64,000 nt of DNA from an uncultured Gammaproteobacteria bacterium (GCA_964413735.1 CAYPSS010000004.1:39538-103537); one strand, 5' to 3'. Shown: positions 3,038 to 49,029, counted from the stretch's first letter. Notes: generated by a model not told the origin, from the letters alone. Translations and numbers: made by a program.

Positions 3038-3057
3038 TTAAATAAAAATAAAATATT

Positions 3058-5288: not shown

Positions 5289-5375
5289 TTGGGCCTCCTT
5301 GTTTAAAAGAACTTGTTATTATAGCACACTTTGGAATAAAAATCAAGGAGTATGGCTCTTTTTGCTTTATTTTAA

Positions 5376-6562: not shown

Positions 6563-6685
6563 TTTTCCCTCCCTTAGGGATTAAGAGCTAAGTCAAGGAA
6601 CATTCGCACCTTTTAAATTAACATAAATTATAAAAAAAGTCAATGGCAAAAACCACTGACTGATTATTTGGGATTAAAATGAATA

Positions 6686-7543
6686 TTAGTCAATACTTTG
6701 AGCCGCATCAATGATAAAGCGAATTATAATATAACTGCTGAAAATAATTGCTAGTCCAATGATCGCTGATATCATGGCGGCTCGGCCTTTTTTCACATAA
6801 TCTGGTCGACCAGCTGAGATCATCCACATTGCTCCTCCAATAATAAATACCACCAGTGCCACTGAGCCAGAAATGCCAATAATATATTTCACAATTCGAC
6901 CAAGAATAATATTAATGTTGGTTTCTCCTAAAGGATTGGGCAAAGATTGAGTAGTGGGGGCCCCAGTATTGGTATTGGGGTCACCGGTGTTGGTATTGGG
7001 GTCACCGGTGTTGGTATTGGGGTCTCCGGTATTGGTTAATGGGCTGTTAGGATCAGCAATACAAAAGTCTTGAGAACAAATATTACTGATACATTCATAA
7101 TTTTCTGTGCATGGACTACCGTCGGATTCTTTGGGATTACAAATTGACGGGCTTAGTGATAAGTTACAAAATTGATTATCAGGGCAAGCAGTTTGAGAAG
7201 TACAGCTGACAGTACCGGTTCCGGCAACTAACTCGCATTTTTGTGTTTGAGAATTACATTCACCTTGCAAACATTGGCCATCACCATCACAAGTACCACC
7301 TAAAGGAATTTTAAGGGTACATGATTGAGAAAAATCAGTAGGATTTAATTTGCAAAAATAACCATTTGGACATTGTGAGTCATATTCACATGAGGCACTA
7401 CCACAATAACCCAAACTAGTACAAAATTCCCCTGTTGAACAATCAGCATTGGTCGAACAAGGAGTTTGTTGAGCAAAAATAGTTGTAGGAATGATAAGAA
7501 GTGAAAATAGAATAAAGAAGAGAAAAAAGTGTTTGATTTTCAT
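6686..7543 (-). CDS. Secreted cysteine-rich repeat protein with C-terminal pilin-like (VirB2/TrbC-like) two-helix membrane module
   Basis: 285 aa. Signal peptide; at least five C-x-C-rich modules; internal 21-nt tandem repeat encoding TGDPNTN x4. The C-terminus ...VALVVFIIGGAMWMISAGRPDYVKKGRAAMISAIIGLAIIF is paralogous to the N-termini of ORFs 23264 and 25472. Confidence 0.6.
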   Translation of the reverse strand: MKIKHFFLFFILFSLLIIPTTIFAQQTPCSTNADCSTGEFCTSLGYCGSASCEYDSQCPNGYFCKLNPTDFSQSCTLKIPLGGTCDGDGQCLQGECNSQTQKCELVAGTGTVSCTSQTACPDNQFCNLSLSPSICNPKESDGSPCTENYECISNICSQDFCIADPNSPLTNTGDPNTNTGDPNTNTGDPNTNTGAPTTQSLPNPLGETNINIILGRIVKYIIGISGSVALVVFIIGGAMWMISAGRPDYVKKGRAAMISAIIGLAIIFSSYIIIRFIIDAAQSID

Positions 7544-7545
7544 AT

Positions 7546-20441: not shown

Positions 20442-21071
20442 ATGTTTAATCGTAATTCAGAAAAATACGATTTGATCAATGACCATGAGGATTTGAGTTT
20501 TGGTAAACGAGCGATTTATTTTGTCTGGGATTTGGTCAAGGTGGTCTTTGTTTCTTTGGCGATTATTATCCCGATTCGTTATTTTTTAATTCAACCTTTT
20601 TATGTTAAAGGGGCTTCAATGGAGCCAAGTTTTTATGATCATGAATATTTGATTATCAATGAAATCACTTATCGTTTCGGTCAGCCGGAAAGAGGGGATA
20701 TTGTGGTTTTCAAATATCCCAAGGATCCATCGCAGTTTTTTATCAAGAGAATTATCGGGTTGCCCGGTGAAAAGGTGGAAGTAAAAAACGGATTTGTGTT
20801 TATTTATACGGACAATGGGAAAAAGAAATTTTTATTAGATGAGTATTCTTATTTGGAGGCGGAAGTGAAAACTCAAGGAGAAAAAATTTGGGTTTTGGGT
20901 GAAAATGAGTATTATGTAATGGGTGATAATCGTGAACACAGTTTTGACTCGCGTTCTTTTGGTCCGGTAGATAAGGATTTAATAATTGGAAAAGTATGGT
21001 TTCGTGGTTGGCCACTTAATCGTTTAACTTTATTTAAGGGAATAGATTACGGTTCTATAAATAATCAATAA
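20442..21071 (+). CDS. lepB: Signal peptidase I
   Basis: 209 aa. TM helix, catalytic-Ser box GASMEPSF, Lys box KRIIGLPGE, and GDNREHSFDSR. Confidence 0.85.
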   Translation: MFNRNSEKYDLINDHEDLSFGKRAIYFVWDLVKVVFVSLAIIIPIRYFLIQPFYVKGASMEPSFYDHEYLIINEITYRFGQPERGDIVVFKYPKDPSQFFIKRIIGLPGEKVEVKNGFVFIYTDNGKKKFLLDEYSYLEAEVKTQGEKIWVLGENEYYVMGDNREHSFDSRSFGPVDKDLIIGKVWFRGWPLNRLTLFKGIDYGSINNQ

Positions 21072-22823: not shown

Positions 22824-23267
22824 ATGACTCTTCAAGAAAAAATTGAAAAAGATTTTTTGGTTTCTTATCGCACTCGGGAAAAAGATACGGTGGCGGTTTT
22901 AAGGATGTTGAAATCAGCGATCAAGAATCGAGAAATTGATAAAAAAGAACCATTAACCGACGAAGAAGTATTGCAAACGATTCGCGGTGAAATTAAAAAG
23001 CGTAAAGAATCAATTGAAAATTATCAGACTGGTAATCGTCCGGATTTGGTGGCAATTGAACAAAAAGAAATTGAGATTTTGTCTGTTTATTTACCGGCAG
23101 AATTAAGCGAAGTGGAACTGGAGCAAAAAATATTGACGGTTCTGGCTGATTTGGGCGGAAAAGAAAAAGTGAATTACGGACAATTAATGGGTGCCAGTAT
23201 GAAAGCACTAAACGGACAAGTAGACGGCAAAAGAGTGGGGGAGGCAGTAAAAAAAATCTTAAGTTGA
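22824..23267 (+). CDS. GatB/YqeY domain protein
   Basis: 147 aa. C-terminal GatB/YqeY signature ...VNYGQLMGASMKALNGQVDGKRVGEAVKKIL. Confidence 0.8.
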   Translation: MTLQEKIEKDFLVSYRTREKDTVAVLRMLKSAIKNREIDKKEPLTDEEVLQTIRGEIKKRKESIENYQTGNRPDLVAIEQKEIEILSVYLPAELSEVELEQKILTVLADLGGKEKVNYGQLMGASMKALNGQVDGKRVGEAVKKILS

Positions 23268-25435
23268 TTTTATTTTATTATCATAAAAACAAAAAAATGT
23301 TGAAAAATAAATATCGATCTCATAATATTTCCTACTTAATTTACGGATTATTTTTCTCCTTGGTAATTGGTATTATAATTGGAGGATTTTTTGTTTCAGT
23401 GCCGACCGGCTTTGCTCAAGGTTCAGAGATTATTGAAACAACTGATCAAGCCTTGGAAGTAACGCCATTGGGGAAGGAAGATCCTCGGGTGATTGTGGCG
23501 CGAATTATTCAAATTTTCTTAGGTTTTTTGGGTGCGGTGGCTTTGGTCTTGATAATTTATGCCGGATATTTGTACATGACTTCCGGTGGAGATAATACTA
23601 AGGTTGAAAAAGCGAAAAAAATAATAATCAATGCAGTTATTGGTTTGGCGATCATTATGTTGTCATTTGCCATTGTGACTTTTATTCTCAATCAATTGAG
23701 TAAAGCTTTGGGGATCGGTCAGGGTGGAACACAATATGAATATTATCCGCCGGGGTTGGGCAGTGGCAGTTTAGGGCGTGTAATTCAAGATCATTTTCCC
23801 GGGAATAATGCGGTTGTCCCACGTAATACAGTGATTTTGGTGACTTTCATTGAACCGATTTGGCCGGTGAGTGTGATTAAAAGCGATACGATTTCTTGTT
23901 TTGATCAAGATAATAAAAATATTTGTACTGGTGGTGATTGTAAGATTGGGGAAATTAGACCAAATGAAAATATGATTTGTCGGGGACAATTGGATATTCA
24001 AGCCATGAAAGTTTATCGTGCATGTGATTCTGTTTATGCTCCAGGTGTAGTATTGCCGGAAGATTATTCCGAGGCGAATCGTAATACGCCCAATATTTGT
24101 AATGATTGGACCGGTGATCCACCGACCGATGATTTATTGGTGGGTGGTGATGATAATTTGGAAATAACCATTACTCCGGACTTTAAAACAATAGTTTTTA
24201 ATCCTTATGGATTAAGTGAAGACGAACATTTGGGGTCAGCGTTGTTTGATACCGGATATTTGGTGCAATTGACCAATAATATTATTAATTTGAATCGTAA
24301 TGCCGGAGTTTTTTCCAATGAAACTTCCAGATCATATACTTGGCAATTTACAACTGATACGACTTTGGATTTAACCCCGCCTTTTGTGACCGGTGTTTAT
24401 CCAGTGGAATTGGATGCCAACGGTCAACCGATTAACCCTAGTGATAATGTGGCTAATAATGGTTATCCGCGAAATACGCGTGTGCGCGTGGATTTTTCCG
24501 AACCGGTGATTCCACCGATTTATACCAAATTTTCCGCCGGAGCAATTGCCGGTTATGAAAATGCGGAAATATTGGTCTATTATGGCGATACGATGATCGA
24601 GGGCCAATTGCTAACCGGGATAAATAATTATCGTTCAGTGGTTTTTAAATCTTTGAGTCCCTGTGGTGCTGATGTACCTCAATTTAATTCTTGCGGTGAT
24701 TTGCTCACTTGTTTGCCGGCTTTGGAAACTATTGTGGGTCAGGTAAATTCTGTGCCGGTAGAAAATTTAATCAATGGAAATGGTCCGACGGCATCAATTT
24801 TCCCGGCCGGGGGAATTGTGGATGCGGCGTTAAATGCGCTTGATACCAATGGCCGGTTAGGCATAGCAGATGGTATTACCAGTGGAAGAGCGGGTGATAA
24901 TTTTGTTTGGCGGTTTAAAACTTCCAATGAAGTTGATTTGAGTGCTCCATTGGTAGTGAGTAAAACCCCAAGTATTGAAGGTGAGGTTTTAGTGAATGCT
25001 TTAGTGACCGCTACCTTTACCAAATCTTTGGATCCATCAACCACAATAAATAAAAATATGGGAATTATTTCCGATTCGTGGGATGGGTGGTATACCGGGA
25101 GTTTATTATGTCCCGAGCAAATTGGAGCTGATGGTTCAAAGTTTTGTTTTACTAATGATAAAGTGGCGCAAATCAACCATAGTAATTTTTCACCAGCCAA
25201 AGAAGGGGAAGTGCCTTTGTTTTATCCGCTGATTACTTCCGGAGTTCAAGATATGATGGGGAATTGTTTTAATCCCGGTGGAGAAGCAGGTTCGGAATTT
25301 AATCCTTTAGACCCTAACCCTAAAGGATATTGTAATGGACAAGAAATGGATCAAGGGCAATCTTGTTGCGCAATTTATAACGGCGATGGTGCGGGACAAA
25401 TGGAGATTGTTAATCAAGAGACTTGCCCTTATTAA
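23264..25435 (+). CDS. Large surface protein with N-terminal pilin-like (VirB2/TrbC-like) membrane module and Ig-like/beta-rich ectodomain
   Basis: 723 aa. N-terminus ...RVIVARIIQIFLGFLGAVALVLIIYAGYLYMTSGGDNTKVEKAKKIIINAVIGLAIIML is paralogous to that of the next gene. The true start may be the M at 23297. Confidence 0.7.
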   Translation: MILFYYHKNKKMLKNKYRSHNISYLIYGLFFSLVIGIIIGGFFVSVPTGFAQGSEIIETTDQALEVTPLGKEDPRVIVARIIQIFLGFLGAVALVLIIYAGYLYMTSGGDNTKVEKAKKIIINAVIGLAIIMLSFAIVTFILNQLSKALGIGQGGTQYEYYPPGLGSGSLGRVIQDHFPGNNAVVPRNTVILVTFIEPIWPVSVIKSDTISCFDQDNKNICTGGDCKIGEIRPNENMICRGQLDIQAMKVYRACDSVYAPGVVLPEDYSEANRNTPNICNDWTGDPPTDDLLVGGDDNLEITITPDFKTIVFNPYGLSEDEHLGSALFDTGYLVQLTNNIINLNRNAGVFSNETSRSYTWQFTTDTTLDLTPPFVTGVYPVELDANGQPINPSDNVANNGYPRNTRVRVDFSEPVIPPIYTKFSAGAIAGYENAEILVYYGDTMIEGQLLTGINNYRSVVFKSLSPCGADVPQFNSCGDLLTCLPALETIVGQVNSVPVENLINGNGPTASIFPAGGIVDAALNALDTNGRLGIADGITSGRAGDNFVWRFKTSNEVDLSAPLVVSKTPSIEGEVLVNALVTATFTKSLDPSTTINKNMGIISDSWDGWYTGSLLCPEQIGADGSKFCFTNDKVAQINHSNFSPAKEGEVPLFYPLITSGVQDMMGNCFNPGGEAGSEFNPLDPNPKGYCNGQEMDQGQSCCAIYNGDGAGQMEIVNQETCPY

Positions 25436-25471
25436 ACTGATAAATTATAAATTCAACATAAAAATAAAAAA

Positions 25472-28400
25472 ATGATAACCACAAGAACAAATAAGATCGC
25501 TCTCATTCTGTTTGTTTTGATTATAGGCATATTTTTGTATGGGGGTGGTTTGGTTTTAGCTCAAGAAAATAATGTTATTAATGAAGGATTGCAAGCTTTT
25601 GGTAATGAAACTATTTTAGGGCAAGAAGATCCCAGAGTGATAATTGCGCGGGTGATTCGAATTTTACTTGGCTTTTTAGGGACCGTGGCTTTGGCGATTG
25701 TCATGTATGGCGGTTTTTTGTATATGACTTCCGGTGGTTCCGAGGAGCGCGTTGGCAAGGCCAAAAAATGGTTGATTAACGGAATTATCGGAATGGTGAT
25801 TATTATGTCAGCTTTTGCTTTGACTTCTTTTATTATTGGCGCTTTGAGCGATGCGACCGGAATTACCAATGGAAGCGGAACTAATACCGGAACAGGTACC
25901 GGACCGATTGGTGGTGAGAGTGGTTATACGGTTGGAATTTCACCGGTGGGTGAGAATAAACCGGTAAATGTGGTGATCAAAATTCAATTTCCATATGGGC
26001 ATTTGCCGGCATCAGTGGAAAATGCTCAGCAAAGTATCAAGGTTTATCAATTATCAGGGGAAGAAAAAACCGAGGTGGAAGTGCCCGGTACTTTTGGTAT
26101 TTCCGGACGAACGGTTACTTTTACCCCCAGTGGCGCATGTCCGGCCGGTTGTGAAGCGGAAAATTGTTTTGCAATAAATACTGAATATCGAGTTAAAATC
26201 AATGATTTGCAAGATTCTAATAATGAGCGAATTATTTGTCCCAACCCCATGCTTGGTTATTGTAAAATGGTGGAGTTTTCTACTAGTGGGGTTTGTGATT
26301 TGTCCGGTCCGGATATTGCTATTTCTCAGATTGCTCCGCAACCATTAAAACAAAATAATTTGTTTAGTACTTTTGTGGGAGCAAGAGATAATGGTGGAAT
26401 TTTTGCTTTGGAGTTATGTCCCGGTTGGCAGGCGGATGGTCCAAATGTTTGTCGTGAATATTTACCGGAAAACAACCCAACCGCTTTGGATTATGCTTTT
26501 TATAATTTAGATAGCAGTGAAGCGGGATTTAATTTAAGTTTAGGATGGCATGATGTTAAATTGTTTGGTGAGGATGTGGTGGGCTATAAAAGTGAAGTGA
26601 CCAAAAGAATGTTAGTAGCCTCCGAAGCTTGTTTTGATGATAATGATGAATTTAATTGCAGTTTAGCCGGTTGCGAAGTTCCTTGCGATGAATGTCAAGA
26701 TGAGGAAAATTGTGAATATTATTGTGTGGAAAATGAAACCGGAGAAACGGTTTGTTCTCCATGGCCATATCCGATTATTGATTTGATTTTGCCTCATTAT
26801 GGTCCCAGAAATAGTTTTATTACTATTCAGGGAAGAAACTTTGGAGCGTTTGGTCCTAAGAGTAATGTGAAAATGGATAATGTGGTGGCCGGATTGGCCT
26901 GTGGTGGTGGCGCCAATAGTTGGAATAATAATCAGGTGATTGTAAAAGTGCCGGAAGGTGCTAGTGATGGATGGATTCGGTTAACTGATGCGGACGGTTA
27001 TTATAATGATACCAGTGATCCCAATTCTCCGGGGTGGAAGGATAATTTTTTGATTCAACAAGAACTGAGTAATTGGATTGGTTTATGTGCGCTTGATCCA
27101 ACCGAAGGAGCACCAGGAACATTGGTTGATGCTTCCGGTGAAAATTTTGGGGAATCAGGAAGTGTTTATTTTAATCAATATACTGGCACTTCGCCGGACA
27201 GTTGGAGTAGTACTAATATTTCTAATATTCGAGTACCGAATTTGGCTGCCGGTTATGTAAATGTTCAAATCAGTCATAATGGGGTGACGGATAATGTTTT
27301 TAGTAATCCGGTGCGATTTAAAATTTTACCAGTAGAAGATAATTTGGAAATTTTTAGTGTGACGCCGGGAGATGGCCCGCAAAAGCAACTGATTACCATT
27401 AAAGGCCGTAATTTCGGGACTTCAGGAACGGTCAGTTTTATTAGTGGCGCTGATAGTTATTTGGCACAATTTCCTTGTGATGGCAGTTGGAGAGACACGG
27501 AAATTATTGCTCAGGTGCCTGAGGATGCTCCTGATGGTATTTATACTTTACAGGTAACGGGTATTAAAGGTACCGACTCAGTTGATTTTAATATTAATAA
27601 TGATCCTTTGGTTCCGGGGATTTGCAGTATGACCCCCAATAATGGTCAGCCGGGAACAAAAGTTAATTTTATTGGGGCAGCTTTTGGTGATGATTATGGT
27701 ATGGTGAGATTTACCGGTCAAAGTGGCGTGGCTCAAAATATTGAGTCCGGTGCTTTGAAGGTGCAAAAGGTTGATTGGCAAGATACCAAAATTGTTGGTG
27801 TTCAAGTTCCTCCGACAGCGGTTAGTGGTGATGTTAAAGTGATTGTTGATGGTGAGGAAAGTAATCCGGCTTATTTTAAGGTGGGGAAATGTTCATCTGA
27901 TTCTCAGTGTGGTACTGGTGAAATTTGTTGTGAAAAATCTTATTGTTCTACGGTAGATCAATGTAAACCACGAATAACGAGTAGTGCTTATGGTTGGTAT
28001 TTTAGCACCGGTTTAATGCCTCAAATTCCAAAGGTTTTGGAACGTGAATGTGTTTTGGGGGAATATGATGAATCCACTTCGCCAAGTAATAATGAACAAA
28101 TGGCTTGTCCGAACGGTTTAATTAGTTTTACTTTTAACATGAAGATGCAAACCGCTGAATTTTTAGACTTAGAAAATCAAGTGGAGATTAAACATTGTAC
28201 TGATAGTGGGCGACAATGTAATTTAGTGGAATGTACGAGCGAAGGTGGTTGTTTGGCGGAAAATTATACATTTGAATCAATTGGTAATGATTTGGAGGGC
28301 AATCCGATTATTAATGAGATTCAAGATAGTGTTTATAATAACAGGGAAGTAACGCAAGTTGTTTTGTCTGATTATGATTTAACTCCCGATACTTGGTATC

Positions 28401-31400
28401 AGGTGGTGGTGCCGGCCGGTTTTCGTGCCAAAGATGATCGCGGTCGTGATGTATATATGCCTGATGAATATGTTTGGACTTTTCATACCGGGACGGAGGA
28501 TTGTGATATAGAAGATGTTTTGGTCAATCCGGCGGAAGGAGTGATTGCCGAGGTTTATGAAACCCAAACTTACAAAGTTAGTGGACAAGCAGCCAATTGT
28601 GCGATTTTGGATGTTTCCGGCTATAGTTGGAATTGGACTTTGAATAAATATACGGATCATTTGGAAAAAGTAAATGATGAAAATGTTAAAGCGGAATTTG
28701 GTTTGAAATCCGCGTCGCAAACCGGGGCGTTTGAAACTCCGATTGATGATCCGGCACTGGTTAACGCCTCTACGGTTATTTCCGGTGCAAACAAAAGTGA
28801 TGAGGCCAAATTAGCGGTTAAGTTTAATAATCCACGGGTGGTTTCATATTGGCCGAATTGTGATGAAGCTTGTCGTAATGCGGAAATCGGGGCGCAATTT
28901 AATACTTACATGAAGAAAACAGAGATTGAAAATTTGGCGGTAAGTAATAGCTTGGCGCAAGTATTTAAATGTGATGATCAGGATTGTTTGTCAGTAGTGG
29001 GGAAACAAAATGTTCTTTCAAACGATTCTCAAGTGGAATGTGTTTCTACTACCGGATTAATCAGTCTGGGGCAAGGAGCAAATGCAATTGATGTTTGTAA
29101 TCAATTACGGATTTTCCCCGATCCGGTTTTGGATCCGTCTTCTTTTTATCGCGTCGTATTAAATGAAAATATTAAAAGTGTTAGCAATAAAACTTTAACT
29201 GGTTTGAATTTTGTCAGTACGGCTCAAACAATTGGGTTTTGCGGAAATGGATTAATTGAAGGGGAGGAACAATGTGAAGCTATTTGTCGGGATAAAAACT
29301 CCGGTTCATTGTGTATTTATGATGAGAATAGTCCAAATTGTGTTTGTAATTTAGCCAATAATCCTTATTGTGATAATGAATGTCAATTTAAGGCCTTCCC
29401 TGTTTGTTCTGCTACGCAAACCATTAATTGTTGTGGTAATGGCGTTGAAGAAACTTATACCGGTAATTACAATGTATCGTTGACGGAACAATGTGAAGCT
29501 GATTGTCGTCGTATAGTTGAAGAAAAGTTTGTGGGTGAAAATGCCAATGCTACTTGTACCACGGCTTTTAATGATTTGACTTTAGAACAACGTGCTTCGA
29601 CCGGTTGTAGTTGTTCAATTCCTCAAACTTGTGAGGCCGGAGAAAAAGTTTGTGCCAGCTATTGTTCCAATGATGTTAATCGAAAGTGTACGCAAGATTC
29701 AGTTGATTGTACTTGTATTGAACCGAAAATTTGCCAGGAAGCATTTAATGCTAACGGTCAAATTAAATATTGTACCGGCAATGAACCGGGCGCTTGTACT
29801 TGTGTACCGGAAAAAGCTTGTTTGTTATTGGATGGTGGGGTAGGTAATTCTTGTTCCGCCAGTACGGAGAATTGTGATTGTCGGGAATCTGGATATTATC
29901 AGTTCGCGCCAACGGAAAAATGTTTTGTGGATGCGGTTAATGATCCAAACACTCCGGAAGATGAAACGCAAACTAAGGGTACTTGTGTGAAAAAGTCTTT
30001 TTGTACGGAAAATCCTACTGAACAATGTACCGCTGATCGTTCGGCTTGCACTTGTGTGCCTTTGACATCAATAGCGACCGCCTCTTGTCCGGCTGGTGAT
30101 TTGGTATGTGAGCAAGTATGTACTTTCCAAAATGTGGAAACTTGTTTATCCGGTGAACCGGGATGTATTTGTTCTATGCCTAACGGTTGTACCAATTGTG
30201 TGGTAAATTCAACTTCAGCTGACGAAGAAGAAACAATTTTTGACGCATTTAGTTGGATTTTCAAGGTTCGTGATGGTGAAGCTTATTGTCGACCGGAAAA
30301 AGTGGAAGTGATGCCGGCAAATTATATTGCCACCATTTCCGGGCAAAAGGTGATTTACAGTGGTGTACCTTATACCAAACCGGATGTTTGCAGTGTAAAT
30401 GGTCAACGATTAAATATTTATGATTATGAATGGGATTGGGATTCTAATCCGGAAGATCGTTCCGTGAAAATAGAATTTGGGACATCTTTAAATTTATTTA
30501 ATTCGGCGCATCAAAAGTTAGTGGCTTTATTCAAGCAAACTTTTGCGGTCAGTAGCCAGCCGGGTTGCGGTGATAATTGTTTGAATTTAGGATCCTTAGT
30601 TTATGGCTCGGTTTGCGGTAATGGGATCGTGGAAAAAGGGGAGGAGTGCGATTCTAACTTATATTGTGATGGCAATTGTTTGCATGCCGGAACGCCGGCT
30701 TGTTTTGGCACTTCGGTTTCCGATGCGGGGGCGATTTGTTGTGGTAATGGGGTGGTAAATTCCGGAGAAGATTGTGATGGTGGTGCCGGTTGCAGTGATC
30801 GATGCTTGAAATTAGGATCAAATGCCAGTGGTTATACTTGTGGTAATGGGATCAAAGAGCCGGGTGAAGATGAAGATTATGGTAACTCGACATTAAATAC
30901 AAAATATGGTTTGAATGCCAATTGTTTATTGGTTGGTAGTGATTATCCCAAGCAAATTGTTAATGGTAACTTGCAGGAAATTGAATCAGCGGTTTGTGGC
31001 AATGGTAAATTGGAAGCCGGAGAAGAATGTGAACCGCGGTTATTAAATTGTCAAAAACCGAATGGTACAAGTTGTAACCCATATTCTGATGAGAATTGTG
31101 TTTGTGAAAAATATGAAGATCAATATTGCAGTAATAAATGTTTATTAAAACCGTTTGTGGCGTGTGGAACGATTAAAGTTTGTCAGGAAGATCAGACAAA
31201 ACAGTGTACCAATACAATTAATAAGTGTACTTGTGAGACTGAGTTTGGAAGTTCTCAGGGAGTTTGTGAGGAAGATGGAGTAACAAAATGTACTGGTGAT
31301 ATTCCGCCTTGTACTTGTATTACAAAAGAAATTAATCAAAATTGTTGTGGTAATGGTATTTTGGAACAAGTTGCGAGTTATGATGTTAATGGTAAACAAA

Positions 31401-34400
31401 TTGCTATTAAAGAAGAGTGTGAAGTTCAATGTGAAAATCCGGTTGGTTATTTTGCCTTTAACGAAGGTTCGGGAACAACAACAAAAAATTCAGTTACCGG
31501 GCAGTTGTTTTCAATTGCTAATCGAGTATGGGCAGAAGGACAAAGCGGTACAGCTTTGCAATATAATAATAATGGATGGATAAACTTGAAAAACACTTTT
31601 GATTGGCAGACTACCGATGGTGCGATTTCTTTGTGGTTTAAGACATCAGATCAAATAACCCGAACCTTGATTTCAAAAATTATTGATTCTTCTTCTTATT
31701 ATCAACCGGGAATGTATACTATAAACTTGGTTAATGGTCAGGTACAACTTCGTTTCATTGATGCTAATAAGGCAGTAGTTACAAATTTTGGGATTAAAAA
31801 TTATAATGATAATAAGTGGCATCATTTAGCGTTAATTTTTGATCGTGATAGTCATTTATCTCTTTATGTAGATGGTAACTTGGAATTACGCAATACAACT
31901 CAAGCCTTGAATATGAAGGATTTGGATTTAAGAAATAATGGCGTTGTTTTATTGGGAGCGAGAGGTTTATTGAACGAACAAGGAGGGAGTATGTTTGTTG
32001 GTTCAATTGATGAATTGAAGTTTTTCCGTAGTGCTTTAACTATTGAAGATATCAATCGTTTGATTAGTGGGGCACCTTGTGCTAATAAATTGCCGGTTGG
32101 TTGTACTCCTGGTTGTTTAAATGCCGGCGTGAATCCCAATTTTTCGGGAGAAAGTTATTGCGGAAATGGAGTAGTAGAACCGGGTGAAGATGCCTTGTGT
32201 GAAGCTAATCGAGGTAGTCAAATGGGTGCTCCATATATGAACTTGCAAGTTTTGGGTTATCTTCAGGGCAGTGTTTTGAGTGAAACGCTAAATGTTGTGG
32301 GTAAAATTAAAAGTAATGTTTCCTTTGCGGAGAGAGATGCCGGAGTAACCGGAGGGACGATGATTAGTGGTAATGGTAAATTTACTTATGTTTATACCGG
32401 AAATGGACCGGTGCCGGCTGGTTGTGATTTGAACAATCCGCCCAAAGGAATTTTGACCAGTCCGACGCAATTTAATGCTTGTCCCAATGGTGCGATTGTG
32501 ATTGATTATGACCAAACTTTGGAGTTTTTTGCTGAGCCGGCTATTCTGAATAATTTGACTTCTTATGTTAAACTGGAATATTTGGAATCGTCCGATAAAT
32601 GCAATTCCGTCGCAATCAATTCAAATTCACTATTTTCTAAATTAGCGCAAAAAGTAAAAGATATTTTCCATAGTTTGACGGGCAATGATGTGGTGGCGCA
32701 ACAATCCAGTCCTACACCAGTTGATTTGGTTTGGTGTTCGGAAACAAACTATTCTGTTAGTATTAGTTCAGGTCAAGGCGAAGGTGATTATAATGGTTCG
32801 CGGATTACCATTTTAACCAATGGAGAATTGTTAAAAACCAAGAATTATCGTGTGCGGTTATTACAAATGAAAAACAATTGTGACATGAATATGGGTGATC
32901 AACAATTCACCTTTAATGTAAAGGCTGATGTTTGTCAGTTGGATGGTATTAAAGTTTTGCAGGAAGACGAAGAAAACAGTGAAAAAGTTTGGGTGCCGGA
33001 TAAAATTGCCACTGAAAGAAATGAAGATTGGGAGACGATTCATTATCCATTGTCCGGATTAACAATTCTCCAGCCGGTTAAAGGTTATAATTGGGAATGG
33101 AAAGCCGGGATTAATGCTTCTACGACGACGGAGTGGTCAACGGCTGATGCTTCGTTAATATCCTTTGATTTGGGGGCAGCAACAACTGATCCGGATCAAG
33201 TGGAAATTAATAATAAAATCGGTCGAACGACCATTACTGCTTATGCGACAATTACCGAAGATTATTTTTACGGTAAAGTAGGAACCGTGATTCAGGGCTC
33301 GGGAACGGTTGATGTTTTCTTGTGTGAAAATCCTTGGTCAATCAGTCCCAGTGCTCTTGGTTGGACGGAAAATCAATATCATATCAGATTAATGTATTGT
33401 CGTGATGCCGGTAATATTAATGCCACAGATGATGATTTGCCGGATTTGCGCGTGGTGGAGGGGCCCTCAGCTTCCGGTTCTTTATTAAAGGAATATTTCT
33501 TCTTGCGCTCTGATTTGGATGCACAAACCGATGGTTCAGGCGATGCGATTGCTTTGCGAGTATATGCCAACCCTAATCATTTATCCGCCGGGGAATGGTT
33601 TATGCAAAATGTTCCTAATATTGAAAATTCAACTTTGTCGCCGATGAAGGTGGCTTGTGATACTCATCCATATTATGGTACGGAAGTTTGTTATTATGGG
33701 GTGCGAGATGGTAATACGATTTATATTGTAGCCGGTAATTTAAATAATAATGTTTTGTACGACAATATTTATATTTTGGCTTATAATTTGGAAGCTAATA
33801 GTACGACGACCGGAATTTATTCACAAATGCTCAATTATTTGACTTTTAATATCAACGTTGGTAATTCTAATGAAAGATGGAAAATTCAACGAGATATGAA
33901 GCGGGTAGTGGATATTTCCATGTTAAAACGCTTCTTAGCTTCTTATTTTCAAGATAAAGGTTCTTTGCCTGAAATTTCAAGCGGTTCGTATTTGCGAGGG
34001 ATGTCACTTAGCAGTTGGTTAAGTTGGAACTCTGTCTTGCAAGTTGATTTACGAGAGTATTTGCAGTCTGACGCCAGTTATCGCGGACAAATTCCCGAAG
34101 ACCCGATCAATTATTTTGAGCAATATGATCCCAGTACTAATTATAGCGGAACCAGATGTGCTGAAGATAGTCGTAGTTGTTTAACTGGTAATCATCAATG
34201 TTTTGCAGCGAAAAATTCATCGGTTTGTTCGGTTTGTGCTCCGGGGTCGGATCCTTTGACTTGTTATGATTCCACCACTTTGCAAGTTACCATTCCACCG
34301 GCCGATATTTTTAGCAGTAATAGTTATTTATATGGTTATCAGTATATGACTTATAATAGTGCTTTATTATATTATAATTTAGAAGGTAATTATTCGGTTA

Positions 34401-34435
34401 ATAATCAGCCGGAAAGTTCCTTATACATTGATTAA
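25472..34435 (+). CDS. Giant (2987 aa) cell-surface adhesin-like protein: pilin-like membrane module, IPT/TIG repeats, LamG/ConA-like domain, multiple CGNG-x3-GEECD cysteine-rich repeats
   Basis: Single uninterrupted ORF; antisense ORFs inside it are spurious. TIG-like ITIQGRNFG/ITIKGRNFG motifs. LamG-like region at about 31440-32050 (LSLYVDGNL...GSIDELKFF). At least six copies of CGNGxxExGEECD, a Myxococcus-type Cys repeat. Confidence 0.8.
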   Translation: MITTRTNKIALILFVLIIGIFLYGGGLVLAQENNVINEGLQAFGNETILGQEDPRVIIARVIRILLGFLGTVALAIVMYGGFLYMTSGGSEERVGKAKKWLINGIIGMVIIMSAFALTSFIIGALSDATGITNGSGTNTGTGTGPIGGESGYTVGISPVGENKPVNVVIKIQFPYGHLPASVENAQQSIKVYQLSGEEKTEVEVPGTFGISGRTVTFTPSGACPAGCEAENCFAINTEYRVKINDLQDSNNERIICPNPMLGYCKMVEFSTSGVCDLSGPDIAISQIAPQPLKQNNLFSTFVGARDNGGIFALELCPGWQADGPNVCREYLPENNPTALDYAFYNLDSSEAGFNLSLGWHDVKLFGEDVVGYKSEVTKRMLVASEACFDDNDEFNCSLAGCEVPCDECQDEENCEYYCVENETGETVCSPWPYPIIDLILPHYGPRNSFITIQGRNFGAFGPKSNVKMDNVVAGLACGGGANSWNNNQVIVKVPEGASDGWIRLTDADGYYNDTSDPNSPGWKDNFLIQQELSNWIGLCALDPTEGAPGTLVDASGENFGESGSVYFNQYTGTSPDSWSSTNISNIRVPNLAAGYVNVQISHNGVTDNVFSNPVRFKILPVEDNLEIFSVTPGDGPQKQLITIKGRNFGTSGTVSFISGADSYLAQFPCDGSWRDTEIIAQVPEDAPDGIYTLQVTGIKGTDSVDFNINNDPLVPGICSMTPNNGQPGTKVNFIGAAFGDDYGMVRFTGQSGVAQNIESGALKVQKVDWQDTKIVGVQVPPTAVSGDVKVIVDGEESNPAYFKVGKCSSDSQCGTGEICCEKSYCSTVDQCKPRITSSAYGWYFSTGLMPQIPKVLERECVLGEYDESTSPSNNEQMACPNGLISFTFNMKMQTAEFLDLENQVEIKHCTDSGRQCNLVECTSEGGCLAENYTFESIGNDLEGNPIINEIQDSVYNNREVTQVVLSDYDLTPDTWYQVVVPAGFRAKDDRGRDVYMPDEYVWTFHTGTEDCDIEDVLVNPAEGVIAEVYETQTYKVSGQAANCAILDVSGYSWNWTLNKYTDHLEKVNDENVKAEFGLKSASQTGAFETPIDDPALVNASTVISGANKSDEAKLAVKFNNPRVVSYWPNCDEACRNAEIGAQFNTYMKKTEIENLAVSNSLAQVFKCDDQDCLSVVGKQNVLSNDSQVECVSTTGLISLGQGANAIDVCNQLRIFPDPVLDPSSFYRVVLNENIKSVSNKTLTGLNFVSTAQTIGFCGNGLIEGEEQCEAICRDKNSGSLCIYDENSPNCVCNLANNPYCDNECQFKAFPVCSATQTINCCGNGVEETYTGNYNVSLTEQCEADCRRIVEEKFVGENANATCTTAFNDLTLEQRASTGCSCSIPQTCEAGEKVCASYCSNDVNRKCTQDSVDCTCIEPKICQEAFNANGQIKYCTGNEPGACTCVPEKACLLLDGGVGNSCSASTENCDCRESGYYQFAPTEKCFVDAVNDPNTPEDETQTKGTCVKKSFCTENPTEQCTADRSACTCVPLTSIATASCPAGDLVCEQVCTFQNVETCLSGEPGCICSMPNGCTNCVVNSTSADEEETIFDAFSWIFKVRDGEAYCRPEKVEVMPANYIATISGQKVIYSGVPYTKPDVCSVNGQRLNIYDYEWDWDSNPEDRSVKIEFGTSLNLFNSAHQKLVALFKQTFAVSSQPGCGDNCLNLGSLVYGSVCGNGIVEKGEECDSNLYCDGNCLHAGTPACFGTSVSDAGAICCGNGVVNSGEDCDGGAGCSDRCLKLGSNASGYTCGNGIKEPGEDEDYGNSTLNTKYGLNANCLLVGSDYPKQIVNGNLQEIESAVCGNGKLEAGEECEPRLLNCQKPNGTSCNPYSDENCVCEKYEDQYCSNKCLLKPFVACGTIKVCQEDQTKQCTNTINKCTCETEFGSSQGVCEEDGVTKCTGDIPPCTCITKEINQNCCGNGILEQVASYDVNGKQIAIKEECEVQCENPVGYFAFNEGSGTTTKNSVTGQLFSIANRVWAEGQSGTALQYNNNGWINLKNTFDWQTTDGAISLWFKTSDQITRTLISKIIDSSSYYQPGMYTINLVNGQVQLRFIDANKAVVTNFGIKNYNDNKWHHLALIFDRDSHLSLYVDGNLELRNTTQALNMKDLDLRNNGVVLLGARGLLNEQGGSMFVGSIDELKFFRSALTIEDINRLISGAPCANKLPVGCTPGCLNAGVNPNFSGESYCGNGVVEPGEDALCEANRGSQMGAPYMNLQVLGYLQGSVLSETLNVVGKIKSNVSFAERDAGVTGGTMISGNGKFTYVYTGNGPVPAGCDLNNPPKGILTSPTQFNACPNGAIVIDYDQTLEFFAEPAILNNLTSYVKLEYLESSDKCNSVAINSNSLFSKLAQKVKDIFHSLTGNDVVAQQSSPTPVDLVWCSETNYSVSISSGQGEGDYNGSRITILTNGELLKTKNYRVRLLQMKNNCDMNMGDQQFTFNVKADVCQLDGIKVLQEDEENSEKVWVPDKIATERNEDWETIHYPLSGLTILQPVKGYNWEWKAGINASTTTEWSTADASLISFDLGAATTDPDQVEINNKIGRTTITAYATITEDYFYGKVGTVIQGSGTVDVFLCENPWSISPSALGWTENQYHIRLMYCRDAGNINATDDDLPDLRVVEGPSASGSLLKEYFFLRSDLDAQTDGSGDAIALRVYANPNHLSAGEWFMQNVPNIENSTLSPMKVACDTHPYYGTEVCYYGVRDGNTIYIVAGNLNNNVLYDNIYILAYNLEANSTTTGIYSQMLNYLTFNINVGNSNERWKIQRDMKRVVDISMLKRFLASYFQDKGSLPEISSGSYLRGMSLSSWLSWNSVLQVDLREYLQSDASYRGQIPEDPINYFEQYDPSTNYSGTRCAEDSRSCLTGNHQCFAAKNSSVCSVCAPGSDPLTCYDSTTLQVTIPPADIFSSNSYLYGYQYMTYNSALLYYNLEGNYSVNNQPESSLYID

Positions 34436-34449
34436 TAACAAAAAAACTT

Positions 34450-35124
34450 ATGTTTGATGATGTGTCAACTGCCAAAAACAATCAAGATCAAGTAAATGAT
34501 GAACCAATTGTCACTATGCCGGGAATGGGGCAACCGGTGCCACCTAATTCAGAGAATAAAGGTAATGCTAATGTTTCTATGCCAAATAACGCAACTGTTT
34601 CCCCCAATATTCCTGATAATAATCCGGCTTTCCCTCCGGTAGGTGGGGTAGAGCATAAAAGTAATGTTTTGTTATATGTTTTGATTGCAGTCTTGGTGGT
34701 TATTGTTTTGGGTGTAGGTGGGTATATTGCTTATAATTATTTTATGACACCACCGGTTGATGAGGAGCTCTTGCCAATTAACAATATGATCAATGAAAAT
34801 CCGGCACCAATCAATCAAGTCCCGGAAGAACCGCAATTACCAATCAATGAACCGGAAGAAATTCCCGGCGCGGTTATTAATTTACCACCTACGGACACGG
34901 ATGCTGATGGTTTGACCGATCAGGAGGAAATAATTTTAGGGACTTCTATTAATTTGGCAGATACTGATCGTGATGGGTTAAATGATTTTGATGAAGTACG
35001 GGTTTATTTAACTGATCCGAACAATCCCGATACCGATGGTGACAGCTTTCTTGATGGTGAAGAAGTAACTCATGGGTATGATCCCAAGGGACCGGGCAAA
35101 TTATTAAATTTACAAATTGAATAA
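34450..35124 (+). CDS. Membrane-anchored protein with thrombospondin type-3-like Asp-rich calcium-binding repeats
   Basis: 224 aa. Internal TM helix, a Pro-rich spacer, then DTDADGLTDQEE / DTDRDGLNDFDE / DPNNPDTDGDSFLDGEE repeats. Confidence 0.6.
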   Translation: MFDDVSTAKNNQDQVNDEPIVTMPGMGQPVPPNSENKGNANVSMPNNATVSPNIPDNNPAFPPVGGVEHKSNVLLYVLIAVLVVIVLGVGGYIAYNYFMTPPVDEELLPINNMINENPAPINQVPEEPQLPINEPEEIPGAVINLPPTDTDADGLTDQEEIILGTSINLADTDRDGLNDFDEVRVYLTDPNNPDTDGDSFLDGEEVTHGYDPKGPGKLLNLQIE

Positions 35125-35130: not shown

Positions 35131-36159
35131 ATGACGGAAAATAATAATCAACAAAATTCAAATAATTCCAACGATAATTTGTCGGGTTTTAGTGATCGGG
35201 TGGTTTCGATGCCGGAATCTTTTTATGGTACCAAGGAAAATCTCACTCGTCCGCAAGATTTGAAAGTTCAGTATCAGCCATCTGTTTCTCCGGAAGTGCC
35301 TAAAAAACTAATGAGTCAAAAGCCAACGAAAATTGTTTCCAAAACCACGTATTTGATTATTGGGATTGGGGTTTTGTTATTATTGGGACTGGTTGGTTAT
35401 CTGATATATTTGATGTATTTTTCCAACCCGCAAACACTCGAACAATTACCGGGAACTATTGAAGTGGAAAATTCTTCCGTCCCCCCGATAATAAATGAAC
35501 CTGAAATTGAATTACCATCGGAAACTGAACCGCCGGTCGTGGAAGAGCCACCGATTATTGAAGAACCAATACCTCGAATTTTGAGTTTAATGCATGATAT
35601 CGACACGGATGGTGATTTACTAACTGATAATGAAGAATATGTGTTAAAAACCAATGCGGCGGAAAAAGATACTGATGGTGATGGATATATTGATGGGCAA
35701 GAGTTTATCAATTTTTTCAATCCCATTGCCAGCGAGCCGGCAGAACTGGAGTTTTCCGGTTTGGTGGTGACTTATGTTAATCCGATTTTTGCGTATAATG
35801 TTTTTTATCCGATTGGTTGGTTTGCTCGTTCGGTTGATCAAGCGGCCAGTGAAGTGATTATTACCTCAATTGCCGGTGAATTTGTCAGTATTAAGGTTTT
35901 GGAAAATTCATTGCGTCAGCCGGTCGATGTTTGGTATTTGAGTACTTTTTCGCAAATAACCAGTAATGAAATTAAAATTTATTCCAATCGACAGGGTGAT
36001 AAAGTGGTGCAATCTCCTGATGAATTTACCTCTTACTTGGCAAAAAATGATCTGATTTATGAAATTAAATATGATATTGGAGCGCGAGAAAAGGCCAGTT
36101 ATCCAAATATTTACCAAATGATGGTTAATGGTTTTATTTTTACCAATAACGGTCTTTGA
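35131..36159 (+). CDS. Membrane-anchored TSP3-like Asp-repeat protein with C-terminal globular domain (paralog of the preceding gene)
   Basis: 342 aa. TM helix, a Pro/Glu spacer, DIDTDGDLLTDNEE and DTDGDGYIDGQE repeats. Confidence 0.6.
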   Translation: MTENNNQQNSNNSNDNLSGFSDRVVSMPESFYGTKENLTRPQDLKVQYQPSVSPEVPKKLMSQKPTKIVSKTTYLIIGIGVLLLLGLVGYLIYLMYFSNPQTLEQLPGTIEVENSSVPPIINEPEIELPSETEPPVVEEPPIIEEPIPRILSLMHDIDTDGDLLTDNEEYVLKTNAAEKDTDGDGYIDGQEFINFFNPIASEPAELEFSGLVVTYVNPIFAYNVFYPIGWFARSVDQAASEVIITSIAGEFVSIKVLENSLRQPVDVWYLSTFSQITSNEIKIYSNRQGDKVVQSPDEFTSYLAKNDLIYEIKYDIGAREKASYPNIYQMMVNGFIFTNNGL

Positions 36160-39692: not shown

Positions 39693-40850
39693 ATGCTCGA
39701 ACTATTCTCCCAAAAATTAAAAGCCAACTTCACCCCTGAACAGCAGGATTATTACTTGCAATTGGAAAATGAATTAAAAGAACTTTTGGGCGGTCAAACG
39801 CAGGAGGAAGTACTTGCCAGTGGCGATCCGGAAATTATCCAACAAATTTTGAAGATCAAGCAAGAAATGCTTAATTTTGTGTTAACCAAGAAGACTAGGG
39901 AAATGGTTAGGCAGGAGGAAGCGATGAACCAAAGATTGTTAAAACAAAACGAAGAACAGCTGGAATATGAACAACAAATAGCAATCTTAGACAACATAGA
40001 AATAAAGCATAATGCCGGACAGCAATTAACAGAAAGTGAATTAAAGTTTTTGTATCGACTTGATGGTTTGGGATTGCCTTTTGATGTTAATGATAAAGAA
40101 CAAAAAAGGTTGGATTCTATTATTTTCAATCGTAATTTTAATCAGGAGGTAGCGAATCTTTTGGGTTGTCGAGAGGATCAGGTATGTCTTCTTCAAAATG
40201 AAGGTTTTGATAATGGAGATATGGTTTATCATCTTGGGGATATTGATCTACCAGATGTGACTCAAGTTGACGATCTTGTTTTGCCGAAAATAATTAATGG
40301 CGGAGTGTTTTTAAGAGATTTAATTTTTCCGGAAGGTTTACAATTACCTCAAACGGTGGTCGGACACTTGGATTTATTTCTATTGGCCAGTGTCGATGAT
40401 TTGAGTTTCCCTGATTTTGTGGCTGGTGATGTGAATTTAAGAAGTTTGCTTAAAGCCAAGGATTTACGTTTGCCTAAAGTAATTGGCATGGATGTTAATT
40501 TAAATGATTTGGAGGAAGTGGACAAGTTGATTTTTCCGGATCAGGTTCCAGGGAATGTTAATTTGTCAAAGTTAAAAAATTTCAAAAATTTAATTTTGCC
40601 ACGAAGTATTGGGGGTAATTTGGATTTAAGATCTTTGTCCAGTCCTGACGGATTGGTTTTACCACGGTTTATTGGTGGTAGTCTTGATTTGAGTGGATTA
40701 CAAACTTTGGAAGGATTGATTATCCCATTGGGAATTAAAAAAGTGGATTTAAGTCATTTTTCTGATGAAGAAATGGAAAAAATAAGAGAGAAATTCCCTC
40801 ATGTGGAATTTGCCAATTATCAAAATTCGTTTTCTTCAAGTATAATTTAA
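39693..40850 (+). CDS. LRR-like repeat protein, paralog A (conserved 75-aa N-domain + coiled coil + ~22-aa L-x-L-P-x-x-I-G-G-x-L-D-L repeats)
   Basis: 385 aa. N-terminal domain MLELFSQKLKANFTPEQQDYYLQLENELKELL... is about 90% nucleotide-identical to genes 47832 and 49030. About 10 degenerate repeats of the type LRLPKVIGMDVNLNDLEEVDKLIF; shared C-terminus EKIREKFPHV. Confidence 0.7.
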   Translation: MLELFSQKLKANFTPEQQDYYLQLENELKELLGGQTQEEVLASGDPEIIQQILKIKQEMLNFVLTKKTREMVRQEEAMNQRLLKQNEEQLEYEQQIAILDNIEIKHNAGQQLTESELKFLYRLDGLGLPFDVNDKEQKRLDSIIFNRNFNQEVANLLGCREDQVCLLQNEGFDNGDMVYHLGDIDLPDVTQVDDLVLPKIINGGVFLRDLIFPEGLQLPQTVVGHLDLFLLASVDDLSFPDFVAGDVNLRSLLKAKDLRLPKVIGMDVNLNDLEEVDKLIFPDQVPGNVNLSKLKNFKNLILPRSIGGNLDLRSLSSPDGLVLPRFIGGSLDLSGLQTLEGLIIPLGIKKVDLSHFSDEEMEKIREKFPHVEFANYQNSFSSSII

Positions 40851-40868
40851 ATTTACAATAATATCATT

Positions 40869-41882: not shown

Positions 41883-41884
41883 AT

Positions 41885-42436: not shown

Positions 42437-42494
42437 AATTTTCAATTGTAGTTAATTTTTGTTATAATGAAATATCAATATTCAATGATTTTAT

Positions 42495-45011: not shown

Positions 45012-45039
45012 AATTAAATAAATAATTTAATATAACAAT

Positions 45040-47811: not shown

Positions 47812-47831
47812 TATTTGATTTGTAGAATAAA

Positions 47832-49028: not shown

Positions 49029-49029
49029 T

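Follow-up and report, generated by a model that had tools for sequence, protein, structure and literature searches.

A modular pilin has been defined, for type IV pilins, as an N-terminal pilin module joined through a linker to domains that are not specific to the biology of pili (PMC8179133), and two such proteins of Streptococcus sanguinis, PilB with its vWA domain and PilC with its immunoglobulin (Ig)-like and ConA-like lectin domains, are adhesins located at the tip of a type IV pilus (PMC8179133, PMC9934059). The Patescibacteria, or Candidate Phyla Radiation (CPR), mostly uncultured bacteria that account for much of bacterial diversity, have pilins of another kind. VirB2-like pilins (PF18895/PF04956) have been catalogued in 1,948 patescibacterial assemblies, with 441 tandem arrays of 2–11 divergent genes, and loci of these bacteria for a type IV secretion system (T4SS) mostly lack relaxases (PMC12102498). 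Southlakia epibionticum cannot grow as an epibiont without its T4SS and the associated pilin array (PMC10633639, PMC12857230); PF18895 also dominates freshwater-specific structure clusters. Giant FhaB/DUF2341 proteins have been proposed as adhesins of Patescibacterium danicum, of class ABY1 (PMC11809585). How CPR bacteria recognise and hold their hosts, and what VirB2-like pilins do in T4SSs that have no relaxase, are central open questions, and the locus described here links both. It lies in a 64,000-nucleotide stretch of DNA (GCA_964413735.1, CAYPSS010000004.1:39538-103537), referred to as a whole as the window, in which two adjacent genes of an ultra-small CPR bacterium are predicted to encode surface proteins of 712 and 2,987 residues (the small partner and the giant), each built on a VirB2/TrbC-like pilin module. 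The reading we favour, at somewhat better than an even chance, is that the two are modular pilins of the VirB2/TrbC type which together make up a fibre for attachment at the cell surface.

The two genes occupy uninterrupted open reading frames (ORFs) on the plus strand at 23264..25435 and 25472..34435, intact and at exactly the coordinates given in an initial annotation of this DNA. The annotation's size for the giant was also right (8,964 nt encoding 2,987 residues, or 14.0% of the window as a single ORF), whereas its 723 residues for the small partner should be revised: a protein called by NCBI (P0096) matches with 100% identity from the ATG at 23297 onwards, so this is almost certainly the true start, giving a protein of 712 residues. 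The 2,987-residue sequence of the giant is identical to NCBI protein P0218, encoded on a contig of 115,554 bp; compared with a protein from an independent Logan assembly (P0001) it shows 17 scattered substitutions (at least 99% identity), and a third assembly contains a variant of 3,023 residues (P0219). Recurrence of the giant ORF across assemblies in this way shows that it is not a product of misassembly, and it is no pseudogene. The suspicion that 9 kb of open frame might reflect an error of assembly or annotation, or a decaying pseudogene, can be regarded as already refuted, given identical or at least 99% identical proteins in three independent assemblies, with no break-up of the frame into several genes; intact syntenic orthologues, 25–45% identical, in dozens of species; and a run of 2,987 stop-free codons that cannot be due to chance at 38% GC. 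The window itself is part of a patescibacterial chromosome, from a relative of Candidatus Falkowbacteria in GTDB class ABY1; FtsZ and HisRS are respectively 74% and 60% identical to those of GCA_002773615.1. Many of the GTDB species-representative metagenome-assembled genomes (MAGs) that house this Patescibacteria-specific locus (loci L012–L077) are titled 'uncultured Gammaproteobacteria bacterium' (binchicken/SRP co-assemblies), while one bears the title 'Nanoarchaeia archaeon' and another 'Udaeobacter'. It is almost certain that such titles are in error or that the contigs were mis-binned.

The small partner and the giant are 51% identical over 125 residues at the N-terminal end and have no other detectable similarity, which bears out the claim of the initial annotation that both begin with the same module. 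Both match PF18895 (T4SS_pilin) above its gathering cut-off of 26.6 bits, the small partner with 36.3 bits and the giant with 34.0 bits, as does a third protein of the window (35.0 bits) described below; the range is 34–44 bits for giants against 43–45 bits for small pilins. There are three hydrophobic segments in each protein, all within the first ~150 residues and none further on. Alignment of 24 family members reveals a Sec-type signal peptide with a conserved A-Q end, a two-helix unit with the consensus ...LGFLG..A...I.YGGFLYMTSGG.EEKV..AKK.LIN..IGL.II.SAFAI..F, and a Gly-rich linker. In the giant, the signal peptide comprises residues 1–31 (25472..25564, +), is hydrophobic over residues 2–32 and helical over residues 6–31 in the AlphaFold2 model, and would be cleaved at ...VLA/Q. 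The VirB2/TrbC-like module follows at 25598..25861 (+) and consists of a helix at residues 54–86, a loop at 87–90, the Lys-rich KAKK motif and a helix at 91–129, which AlphaFold2 folds into a helical hairpin with a four-residue turn at pLDDT >90. The corresponding module of the small partner, again with two hydrophobic helices, lies at 23450..23713 (+; residues 63–150 in the 723-residue numbering, the Pfam match covering residues 79–141). The predicted topology is N-out/C-out, since the Lys-rich KAKK that follows the turn would place the end with the turn in the cytoplasm, and hence both termini, together with the C-terminal extension, outside the cell.

The initial annotation had called this a pilin-like membrane module, and the description is sustained by the signal peptide, by the confidently modelled hairpin that matches PF18895, and by family members that align to almost the whole of the TrbC/VirB2 profile. 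These are two homologues of the giant, P0008 and P0056, which align to positions 9–96 of the 98 in PF04956 (TrbC) with 26.5 and 25.6 bits (E = 7.6e-6 and 1.5e-5); small paralogous pilins reach 21–24 bits on the same profile, and no protein of the window matches it at E ≤ 0.1. The giant's module is 53–58% identical to ordinary PF18895 pilins of 127–130 residues, two proteins having been matched when the module alone was used to query a word-indexed protein database. One such small pilin is encoded in an eight-gene array, of which seven members are PF18895 proteins, in the same Falkowbacteria MAG as an orthologue of the giant, and the small pilins of that array are 35–60% identical to the giant's module. 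Signatures of type IV pilins (N_methyl, T2SSG) were matched by neither the giant nor the small partner. Since the module accounts for only 3–12% of proteins of 712 and 2,987 residues, far above the small size (about 100–200 residues) by which PF18895 pilins are recognised, the two are termed a modular pilin variant here rather than ordinary members of the family. The order of the parts, with the module and a Gly-rich linker preceding Big_5, TIG, Cys-repeat and LamG domains, agrees with the published definition of a modular pilin.

Conservation within the module is high. Residues Y39, G41, M45, T46, G49, K58, G67 and I70 (numbered as in the hidden Markov model, HMM) are 93–100% conserved in both partners across 60 genomes, and no position of the module separates the small-partner class from the giant class. 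The modules of a partner and a giant from the same genome are 64.5% identical on average, compared to 52–54% for those from different genomes, and among close Falkowbacteria the orthologous modules (74–88% and 63–84%) resemble each other more than the paralogous ones do (59–63%). From these comparisons the modules of partner and giant appear to be distinct lineages that partly co-evolve, and co-evolution of this kind suggests constraints beyond the needs of a generic anchor, such as a shared partner or co-assembly. The giant's first 460 residues, pilin module included, do not vary among three strains.

The ectodomain of the giant opens with the Gly-rich linker and a Cys-containing, Big_5-like Ig region (25862..26761, +; residues ~131–430), where the Big_5 match is weak; this part is found in 54–71 of 92 homologues. 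It is followed by IPT/TIG Ig-like repeats (26771..27871, +; residues ~434–800; TIG 66 bits in three stretches), common to ~90 of the 92, and by a conserved region containing Big_5 (27872..29221, +; residues ~800–1250), present in 60–77 of them. Next come the Cys-rich CGNG-repeat region (29240..31423, +; residues ~1257–1984; 10–13 Cys per 100 residues in most bins), the LamG/ConA-like lectin cassette (31424..32065, +; residues ~1985–2198; Laminin_G_3 66 bits at residues 2033–2194) and a conserved C-terminal region of ~540 residues (32789..34432, +; residues 2440–2987) that belongs to no Pfam family. The parts shared family-wide are the module, the TIG block and residues 800–1250 and 2500–2900, and residues 1300–1600 are found only in the closest orthologues. 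The TIG, LamG and pilin-like domains anticipated from inspection of the sequence were thus all recovered above curated thresholds; the epithet 'eukaryote-like' that had been attached to them is loose, as Big_5, TIG and Laminin_G_3 are common in bacterial surface proteins. The giant, in which dozens of disulfide-type Cys pairs had been remarked on, has 142 cysteines, concentrated between residues 1200 and 2000. At least six CGNGxxExGEECD repeats of Myxococcus type had also been claimed. Eight CG[ND]G motifs are present by pattern, where our own estimate from composition is ~0.06; three of them fit the canonical form CGNGxxExGE(E/D)C(D/E), and the other five depart from it. The giant's repeats did not match PF13948/DUF4215 or TIGR02232 in searches of Pfam and NCBIfam, even with the isolated region at E ≤ 10, but homologues do match PF13948 (P0056, for example, with 27.6 bits against a cut-off of 27). 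They are probably degenerate relatives of the DUF4215/Myxococcus repeat, as far as pattern and homologues indicate.

The AlphaFold2 model of the C-terminal region (residues 2440–2987; pLDDT 79.7, pTM 0.75) contains Ig-like beta domains, an alpha/beta domain resembling PsbP/Mog1, a helix of 31 residues and a Cys-rich end. A Foldseek search of the PDB with this model returned nothing at E<1e-3, the best partial matches being PsbP/Mog1/DcrB-like, and no Pfam or PDB sequence was matched by the region. When sequences clustered at 50% identity were searched with a profile built from it, 1,776 cluster representatives were retrieved at E ≤ 1e-10, most of them 3,000–3,700 residues long. Counted in such clusters, the giant's family numbers ~1,800, and its members carry no annotation beyond 'hypothetical', 'Ig-like domain-containing protein' or 'pilin'. 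The helix and motif near the C-terminus (RDxxRxxD...G.YP...W.SW...DPxN, residues ~2795–2880) were considered as the alpha1-C and head of a type IV pilin-like fold. The idea was rejected as unsupported: there was no pilin in the Foldseek list, a sub-profile found no relevant PDB sequence, and T2SSG was touched by only one of 15 members, at E = 0.13.

Evidence on what the giant might do comes from a closely related strain (locus L090), with which the window is collinear over 24 kb at 97.9–98.5% DNA identity, except at 31,424–32,064. There BLASTN gave no alignment, and global alignment gave 55–65% identity with indels. The block corresponds to residues ~1985–2198, the LamG cassette, and the two LamG alleles are 28.6% identical over 217 residues, although both match PF13385 (66 and 61.9 bits); the variant allele also matches the receptor-binding lectin family of clostridial neurotoxins. 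Relative to the Falkowbacteria orthologues P0002, P0005 and P0006, LamG is an insertion, confined to a few close relatives. A milder hot-spot of strain variation, at 87–90% DNA identity, falls in TIG domains 2–3 (27,000–27,600). Another, at 34,500–34,800, affects the N-terminal, transmembrane and linker part of the gene for a TSP3 membrane protein downstream (85.7% DNA identity, against ~99% in the flanks), which suggests that this protein co-varies with the giant. No silent LamG donor copies of the kind used in pilS antigenic variation were found in the window or in L090. A binding module that determines specificity and is under diversifying selection would be expected to change in this manner, with one lectin-fold domain exchanged while the gene around it stays nearly the same. 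The suggestion in the initial annotation that proteins of this kind are candidates for host attachment gains support from the presence of so divergent a LamG allele in strains that are otherwise ~98–100% identical. A diversity-generating retroelement (DGR) was considered as a source of variation in the fusions and rejected. A genuine DGR, with bAvd and reverse transcriptase, does lie next to the cassette of one Uhrbacteria genome (L006; GCA_016188475.1, JACPHT010000007.1), at 5566-8071 between yqeY and the cassette. It comprises bAvd at 6662-7081 (-), the reverse transcriptase at 7217-8071 (+), the template repeat at 6530-6663 and the variable repeat at 6058-6191, with adenine-specific mismatches; the variable repeat is in the C-terminal part of a separate gene of 204 residues, outside the pilin fusions.

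The two genes belong to a larger cassette, of which the initial annotation had described only the pair; its occurrence throughout the class, two further partners and a third pilin-module protein were not included. The order of genes in the window is that for an S26 signal peptidase, hisS, an S21-like gene, yqeY, the small partner, the giant, a TSP3 membrane protein, a membrane protein of 342 residues, ybeY, dagK, ftsA and ftsZ. In relatives, yqeY is likewise followed by a fusion of ~600–1,000 residues, a fusion of 1,550–3,500 residues, one or more TSP3 proteins and a protein of ~330–440 residues, and then by ybeY-dagK-ftsA-ftsZ. The third member of the cassette in the window (34450..35124, +) is a single-pass membrane protein of 224 residues with three extracellular Ca-binding repeats DxDxDGLxDxEE (PF18884, E = 3.1e-8), kept at the same position in L001, L003 and L005–L007. 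The fourth (35131..36159, +), also single-pass, has two TSP3/EF-hand-like Ca-binding motifs and a C-terminal domain without known family; a gene for 312–437 residues takes its place in all related loci examined. Terminator-like sites precede yqeY and follow ftsZ, with none strong between them, these calls being consensus matches only. The S26 signal peptidase I gene (20442-21071, +) lies four genes upstream of the cassette, and all the related loci examined keep this position and strand; its product is the enzyme expected to process pilin-type leaders, though the arrangement may reflect mere synteny.

The same order and sizes were seen in two Falkowbacteria, one Uhrbacteria, a 976-kb contig, a further metagenomic contig and the strain variant L090, and the cassette occurs in Falkowbacteria, Magasanikbacteria and Uhrbacteria. 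When one genome per GTDB species was scanned for the module motif, at least 593 module-bearing loci were found. The best 80 were classified, and comprised 59 tandem pairs, in which a partner of ~465–995 residues precedes a giant, nine arrays of small pilins and 12 truncated or ambiguous loci. The tandem pairs include 36 complete giants of 1,550–3,332 residues (median 2,265); comparison of orthologue sizes, as the initial annotation had proposed, gives a span of 1,550 to >3,400 residues for syntenic orthologues in many genomes. The module lies at residues ~40–135 in 92 of 93 database homologues of the giant. A search with the full-length giant of species-representative genomes disclosed no close relative. 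Identity to the Falkowbacteria orthologues is 42% for the giant and 47% for the small partner, against 74% for FtsZ and 60% for HisRS, and the two therefore diverge faster than the neighbouring housekeeping genes.

The small partner (23297..25435, +) has a Sec signal peptide, the two-helix module, a Gly-rich linker, two stretches of Ig-like Big_5 and a Cys-containing C-terminus. At least 120 homologues of 544–1,113 residues are known, nearly all with PF18895 and Big_5, and several are named 'pilin' by NCBI. A scan of the window with the module HMM found no copy beyond those in the small partner, the giant and the third protein (6686..7543, -), in which PF18895 scores 35 bits. The latter has 285 residues and an inverted arrangement: its signal peptide is followed by a Cys-rich Dickkopf_N/DUF7107-like domain (Dickkopf_N 28.4 bits) and a (DPNTNTG)x4 linker, and the module is C-terminal. 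Its additional domain, although on the N-terminal side of the module, is predicted from the topology also to be placed outside the cell. Pilins with N-terminal extensions (320–430 residues, module at residues ~250–420) occur within the small-pilin arrays of L034, L062 and L081. The eight-gene array mentioned above, at L009 (6730-11075; Falkowbacteria GCA_003518055.1, DOZJ01000001.1), is made up of small genes for 114–202 residues, seven of them encoding PF18895 pilins. VirB4 is absent for 10 kb around this array, which is flanked by genes for an SBP_bac_1 solute-binding protein, a DUF2079 membrane protein and two proteins of ~500–550 residues without Pfam family; the pilin arrays of this class are therefore not always beside a T4SS ATPase.

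A mechanism can be proposed on the basis of these features. The pre-proteins would be exported by the Sec pathway and the signal peptide removed after the conserved ...A/Q. The two long helices would then enter the membrane as a hairpin whose KAKK stretch faces the cytoplasm and whose two ends face outwards, as sequence and AlphaFold2 model predict, so that ~570 residues of the small partner and ~2,850 of the giant would stand outside the single membrane of a monoderm cell. The giant would provide a stalk of Ig-like (Big_5, TIG) and disulfide-rich CGNG domains bearing the LamG/ConA-like lectin and the ~540-residue terminal region. LamG would set ligand specificity, probably for glycans of the host surface, and would be exchanged by recombination between strains. 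The module is proposed to act as a functional pilin module that engages other pilins, or the VirB4-type machinery of the sister genomes, because it is a close paralogue of the arrayed small pilins and retains their invariant residues. The two TSP3 membrane proteins encoded downstream, conserved partners of the pair, may assist or stabilise it in a Ca-dependent manner. Surface exposure, ligand binding and incorporation into a pilus are all inferred. The fusions might stay within a membrane pool of pilins or be displayed at the tip or side of a T4SS-type pilus, and here the choice appears roughly even, with a slight lean, by analogy with modular type IV pilins, towards the pilus and its tip. A more specific proposal is tentative, and less likely than not: that ABY1 Patescibacteria build a VirB2-type pilus in a monoderm envelope, with the giant modular-pilin pair at its tip or in its initiation complex in an adhesin role like that of VirB5 or PrgB, and that LamG recombination sets host range. 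If the pair does sit at a pilus tip, these would be the first modular T4SS pilins, and would provide a molecular handle on how CPR bacteria choose and hold their hosts.

Several observations weigh against a pair of modular pilins. An appendage of ~2,850 residues on each subunit is sterically incompatible with a homopolymeric pilus, and according to reviews no pilus made of such pilins has been seen in a monoderm. The best matches to PF04956, in P0008 and P0056, fall 1.4–2.3 bits short of its cut-off of 27.9. Foldseek comparison of the AlphaFold2 module with the PDB gave nothing below E=1, the top 50 being generic helical hairpins, and the module profile had no hits among PDB sequences. The structural comparison to VirB2 and TrbC recommended in the initial annotation therefore returned a compatible hairpin fold and non-specific matches that are not diagnostic, and the link to VirB2 and TrbC is drawn from Pfam profiles and sequence, since both the fold search and the PDB profile search were uninformative. 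The cassette sits among housekeeping and cell-division genes rather than in a T4SS cluster: no VirB4, VirB6, VirD4 or other T4SS component was found in the 64-kb window, nor within 10 kb of the cassette in L001–L007 and L090. The check for T4SS or pilus genes, also recommended, thus drew a blank in the window; among related genomes, all five with the cassette that could be checked in a published survey are VirB4-positive. This co-occurrence counts for little, because most genomes in that survey are positive. Finally, the similarity of the modules within a genome may instead reflect gene conversion.

In an alternative reading, the VirB2-like hairpin has been co-opted as a passive two-helix membrane anchor for large adhesins, with no link to pilins, a pilus or a T4SS. 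This would explain why the cassette is never beside T4SS genes but in a housekeeping and division cluster, and an ectodomain far too large for a repeating pilus subunit would present no difficulty. The N-terminal ~150 residues hold the only hydrophobic segments and so the sole evident anchor, and the third protein of the window, which displays its extra domain from the other side of the module, fits a display anchor of general use. Simple anchors, however, rarely retain motifs across a class, and here residues typical of small pilins are kept in both partners across the 60 genomes; the PF18895 scores of giants are as good as those of small pilins; and within a genome the module of the small partner and that of the giant vary in step. 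A passive anchor is accordingly judged unlikely, though it deserves to be taken seriously. S-layer proteins often contain Ca-binding TSP3 repeats and domains of Ig-like type, and so the pair and its TSP3 partners might be conceived not as adhesins but as an S-layer-like coat or a scaffold associated with cell division. The fixed place next to ybeY-dagK-ftsA-ftsZ throughout the class, possibly within one long operon, would suit such a role, as would the very widespread and conserved C-terminal region of the giant, whose top Foldseek match, not a significant one, is the S-layer protein SbsB (E 5.5e-3, TM 0.14). The promoter and terminator calls behind the operon are consensus matches only, however, LamG, VWA and FN3 modules are inserted or absent by lineage, and the exchange of the lectin for one 28.6% identical, together with the TIG hot-spots, looks like ligand recognition under diversifying selection rather than a lattice; a scaffold seems quite improbable.

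Polymorphic toxins, too, are typically giant, multi-domain proteins with variable modules. The giant might then be a secreted or contact-dependent toxin, either polymorphic-toxin-like or a T4SS substrate, for which the pilin module serves as an export handle; patescibacterial T4SS loci, generally without relaxases, may export proteins, and the variant LamG allele matches the receptor-binding family of clostridial neurotoxins. That match is to a lectin-fold binding domain and not to a catalytic one, and Pfam, NCBIfam and PDB searches disclosed no domain of a toxin, peptidase or nuclease and none of Rhs/PT type. Nor does the C-terminus look like a variable toxin tip, being conserved more widely than any other part of the protein, and no small immunity-like gene lies downstream, all of which makes a toxin very improbable indeed. 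A modular-pilin pair remains the preferred reading, and it makes definite predictions: that the pair is found on the cell surface or a pilus, that LamG alleles bind glycans, that allele correlates with host, and that display depends on VirB4. The locus also offers a ready metagenome marker for host-range variation.

Other features of the window can be described briefly. A block of ~10 kb (39693-49809, +) between ftsZ and a HAD hydrolase gene is missing from the syntenic Falkowbacteria loci and is probably a lineage-specific insertion. It encodes a protein of 385 residues of unknown type, a GH42/GH10-like protein (337 residues), a DUF5667 protein, a protein of 838 residues with a weak VWA match, an AAA_5 (MoxR/dynein-like) ATPase of 923 residues, and further unknowns of 398 and 259 residues; the pairing of VWA with AAA_5 is reminiscent of MoxR-VWA systems. 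The ORF for 259 residues (49030-49809) had a sub-threshold match to CagE/TrbE/VirB (E 0.022 over 39 residues) that was judged to be noise. At ~4560-5290 there is a sharp island of 60–65% GC in a genome of ~38% GC, containing an ORF (4560-5288, -) for a membrane protein of 242 residues with a Pro/Thr/Gly-rich linker, for which there is neither a Pfam family nor, even at E ≤ 1, an Rfam match. The ORF comes directly downstream of the gene for an SPFH/Band_7 protein (5417-6562, -), in an NfeD-like position, and was probably acquired horizontally. The window is probably near a replication origin: parA (AAA_31/CbiA) and parB (2255-3930, +) stand beside two tRNA-Met genes and one tRNA-Leu gene (570-2127, -), and GC skew is positive throughout, most strongly from about 12 kb.

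In the literature searched, whose coverage is incomplete, no description was found of fusions between a pilin module and a giant ectodomain, or of the cassette, and this large conserved family is essentially undescribed there, although databases label some members 'pilin' or 'Ig-like domain-containing protein'. Its nearest relatives are the PF18895 pilins of Patescibacteria, with which it shares the signal peptide and hairpin module (35–60% identity to the array pilins of a sister genome), tandem and sequence-divergent genes, and the phylum, the related genomes being VirB4-positive. The published pilins, however, are small and lie in or near T4SS clusters, whereas these carry ectodomains of ~570 and ~2,850 residues and are encoded as a fixed pair, beside genes for TSP3 partners, in a housekeeping and division neighbourhood far from T4SS genes. 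VirB2 of the T-pilus, TrbC of RP4 and TraA of F similarly have a long leader and two hydrophobic helices with a short turn by a basic stretch, and termini predicted to be outside. Both termini of F-pilin are on the exterior of the pilus, and so a C-terminal fusion is topologically compatible with that architecture. Unlike the present proteins, the canonical pilins are 70–120 residues long when mature, are encoded in diderm T4SS operons and form polymers of pilin and phospholipid; VirB2 and TrbC are moreover cyclised, which a C-terminal fusion makes impossible here.

As giant, fast-evolving, multi-domain surface proteins with Ig-like and lectin-like modules, the pair resembles large Ig-repeat adhesins and the giants of P. 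danicum, which belongs to the same class. It differs from the latter in having no FhaB or DUF2341 domain and in forming a conserved syntenic family, where theirs lack full-length homologues, and it would be anchored by the pilin module at its N-terminus rather than through a sortase/LPXTG, autotransporter or type I secretion signal. The nearest precedent in concept is found in the type IV modular pilins, PilB, PilC and CofB of enterotoxigenic Escherichia coli, in all of which adhesive modules are grafted onto the C-terminus of a small pilin carrier. The modules themselves correspond, with a ConA-like/Laminin_G_3 lectin and Ig-like domains here and vWA in homologues of the giant, and PilB and PilC likewise provide a precedent for two modular pilins that occur together. 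The carriers are different: type IV modular pilins have a class III signal peptide (IPR012902) and a single N-terminal helix, and depend on a prepilin peptidase and type IV pilus machinery, whereas a Sec signal peptide and a VirB2-type hairpin are found here. The appendage is also 5–10 times larger than in known modular pilins, for which the extreme cited is 860 residues (PMC8179133), and display on a filament, known for theirs, is conjectural here. The modular-pilin strategy thus appears to have arisen independently on the scaffold of a conjugative pilin.

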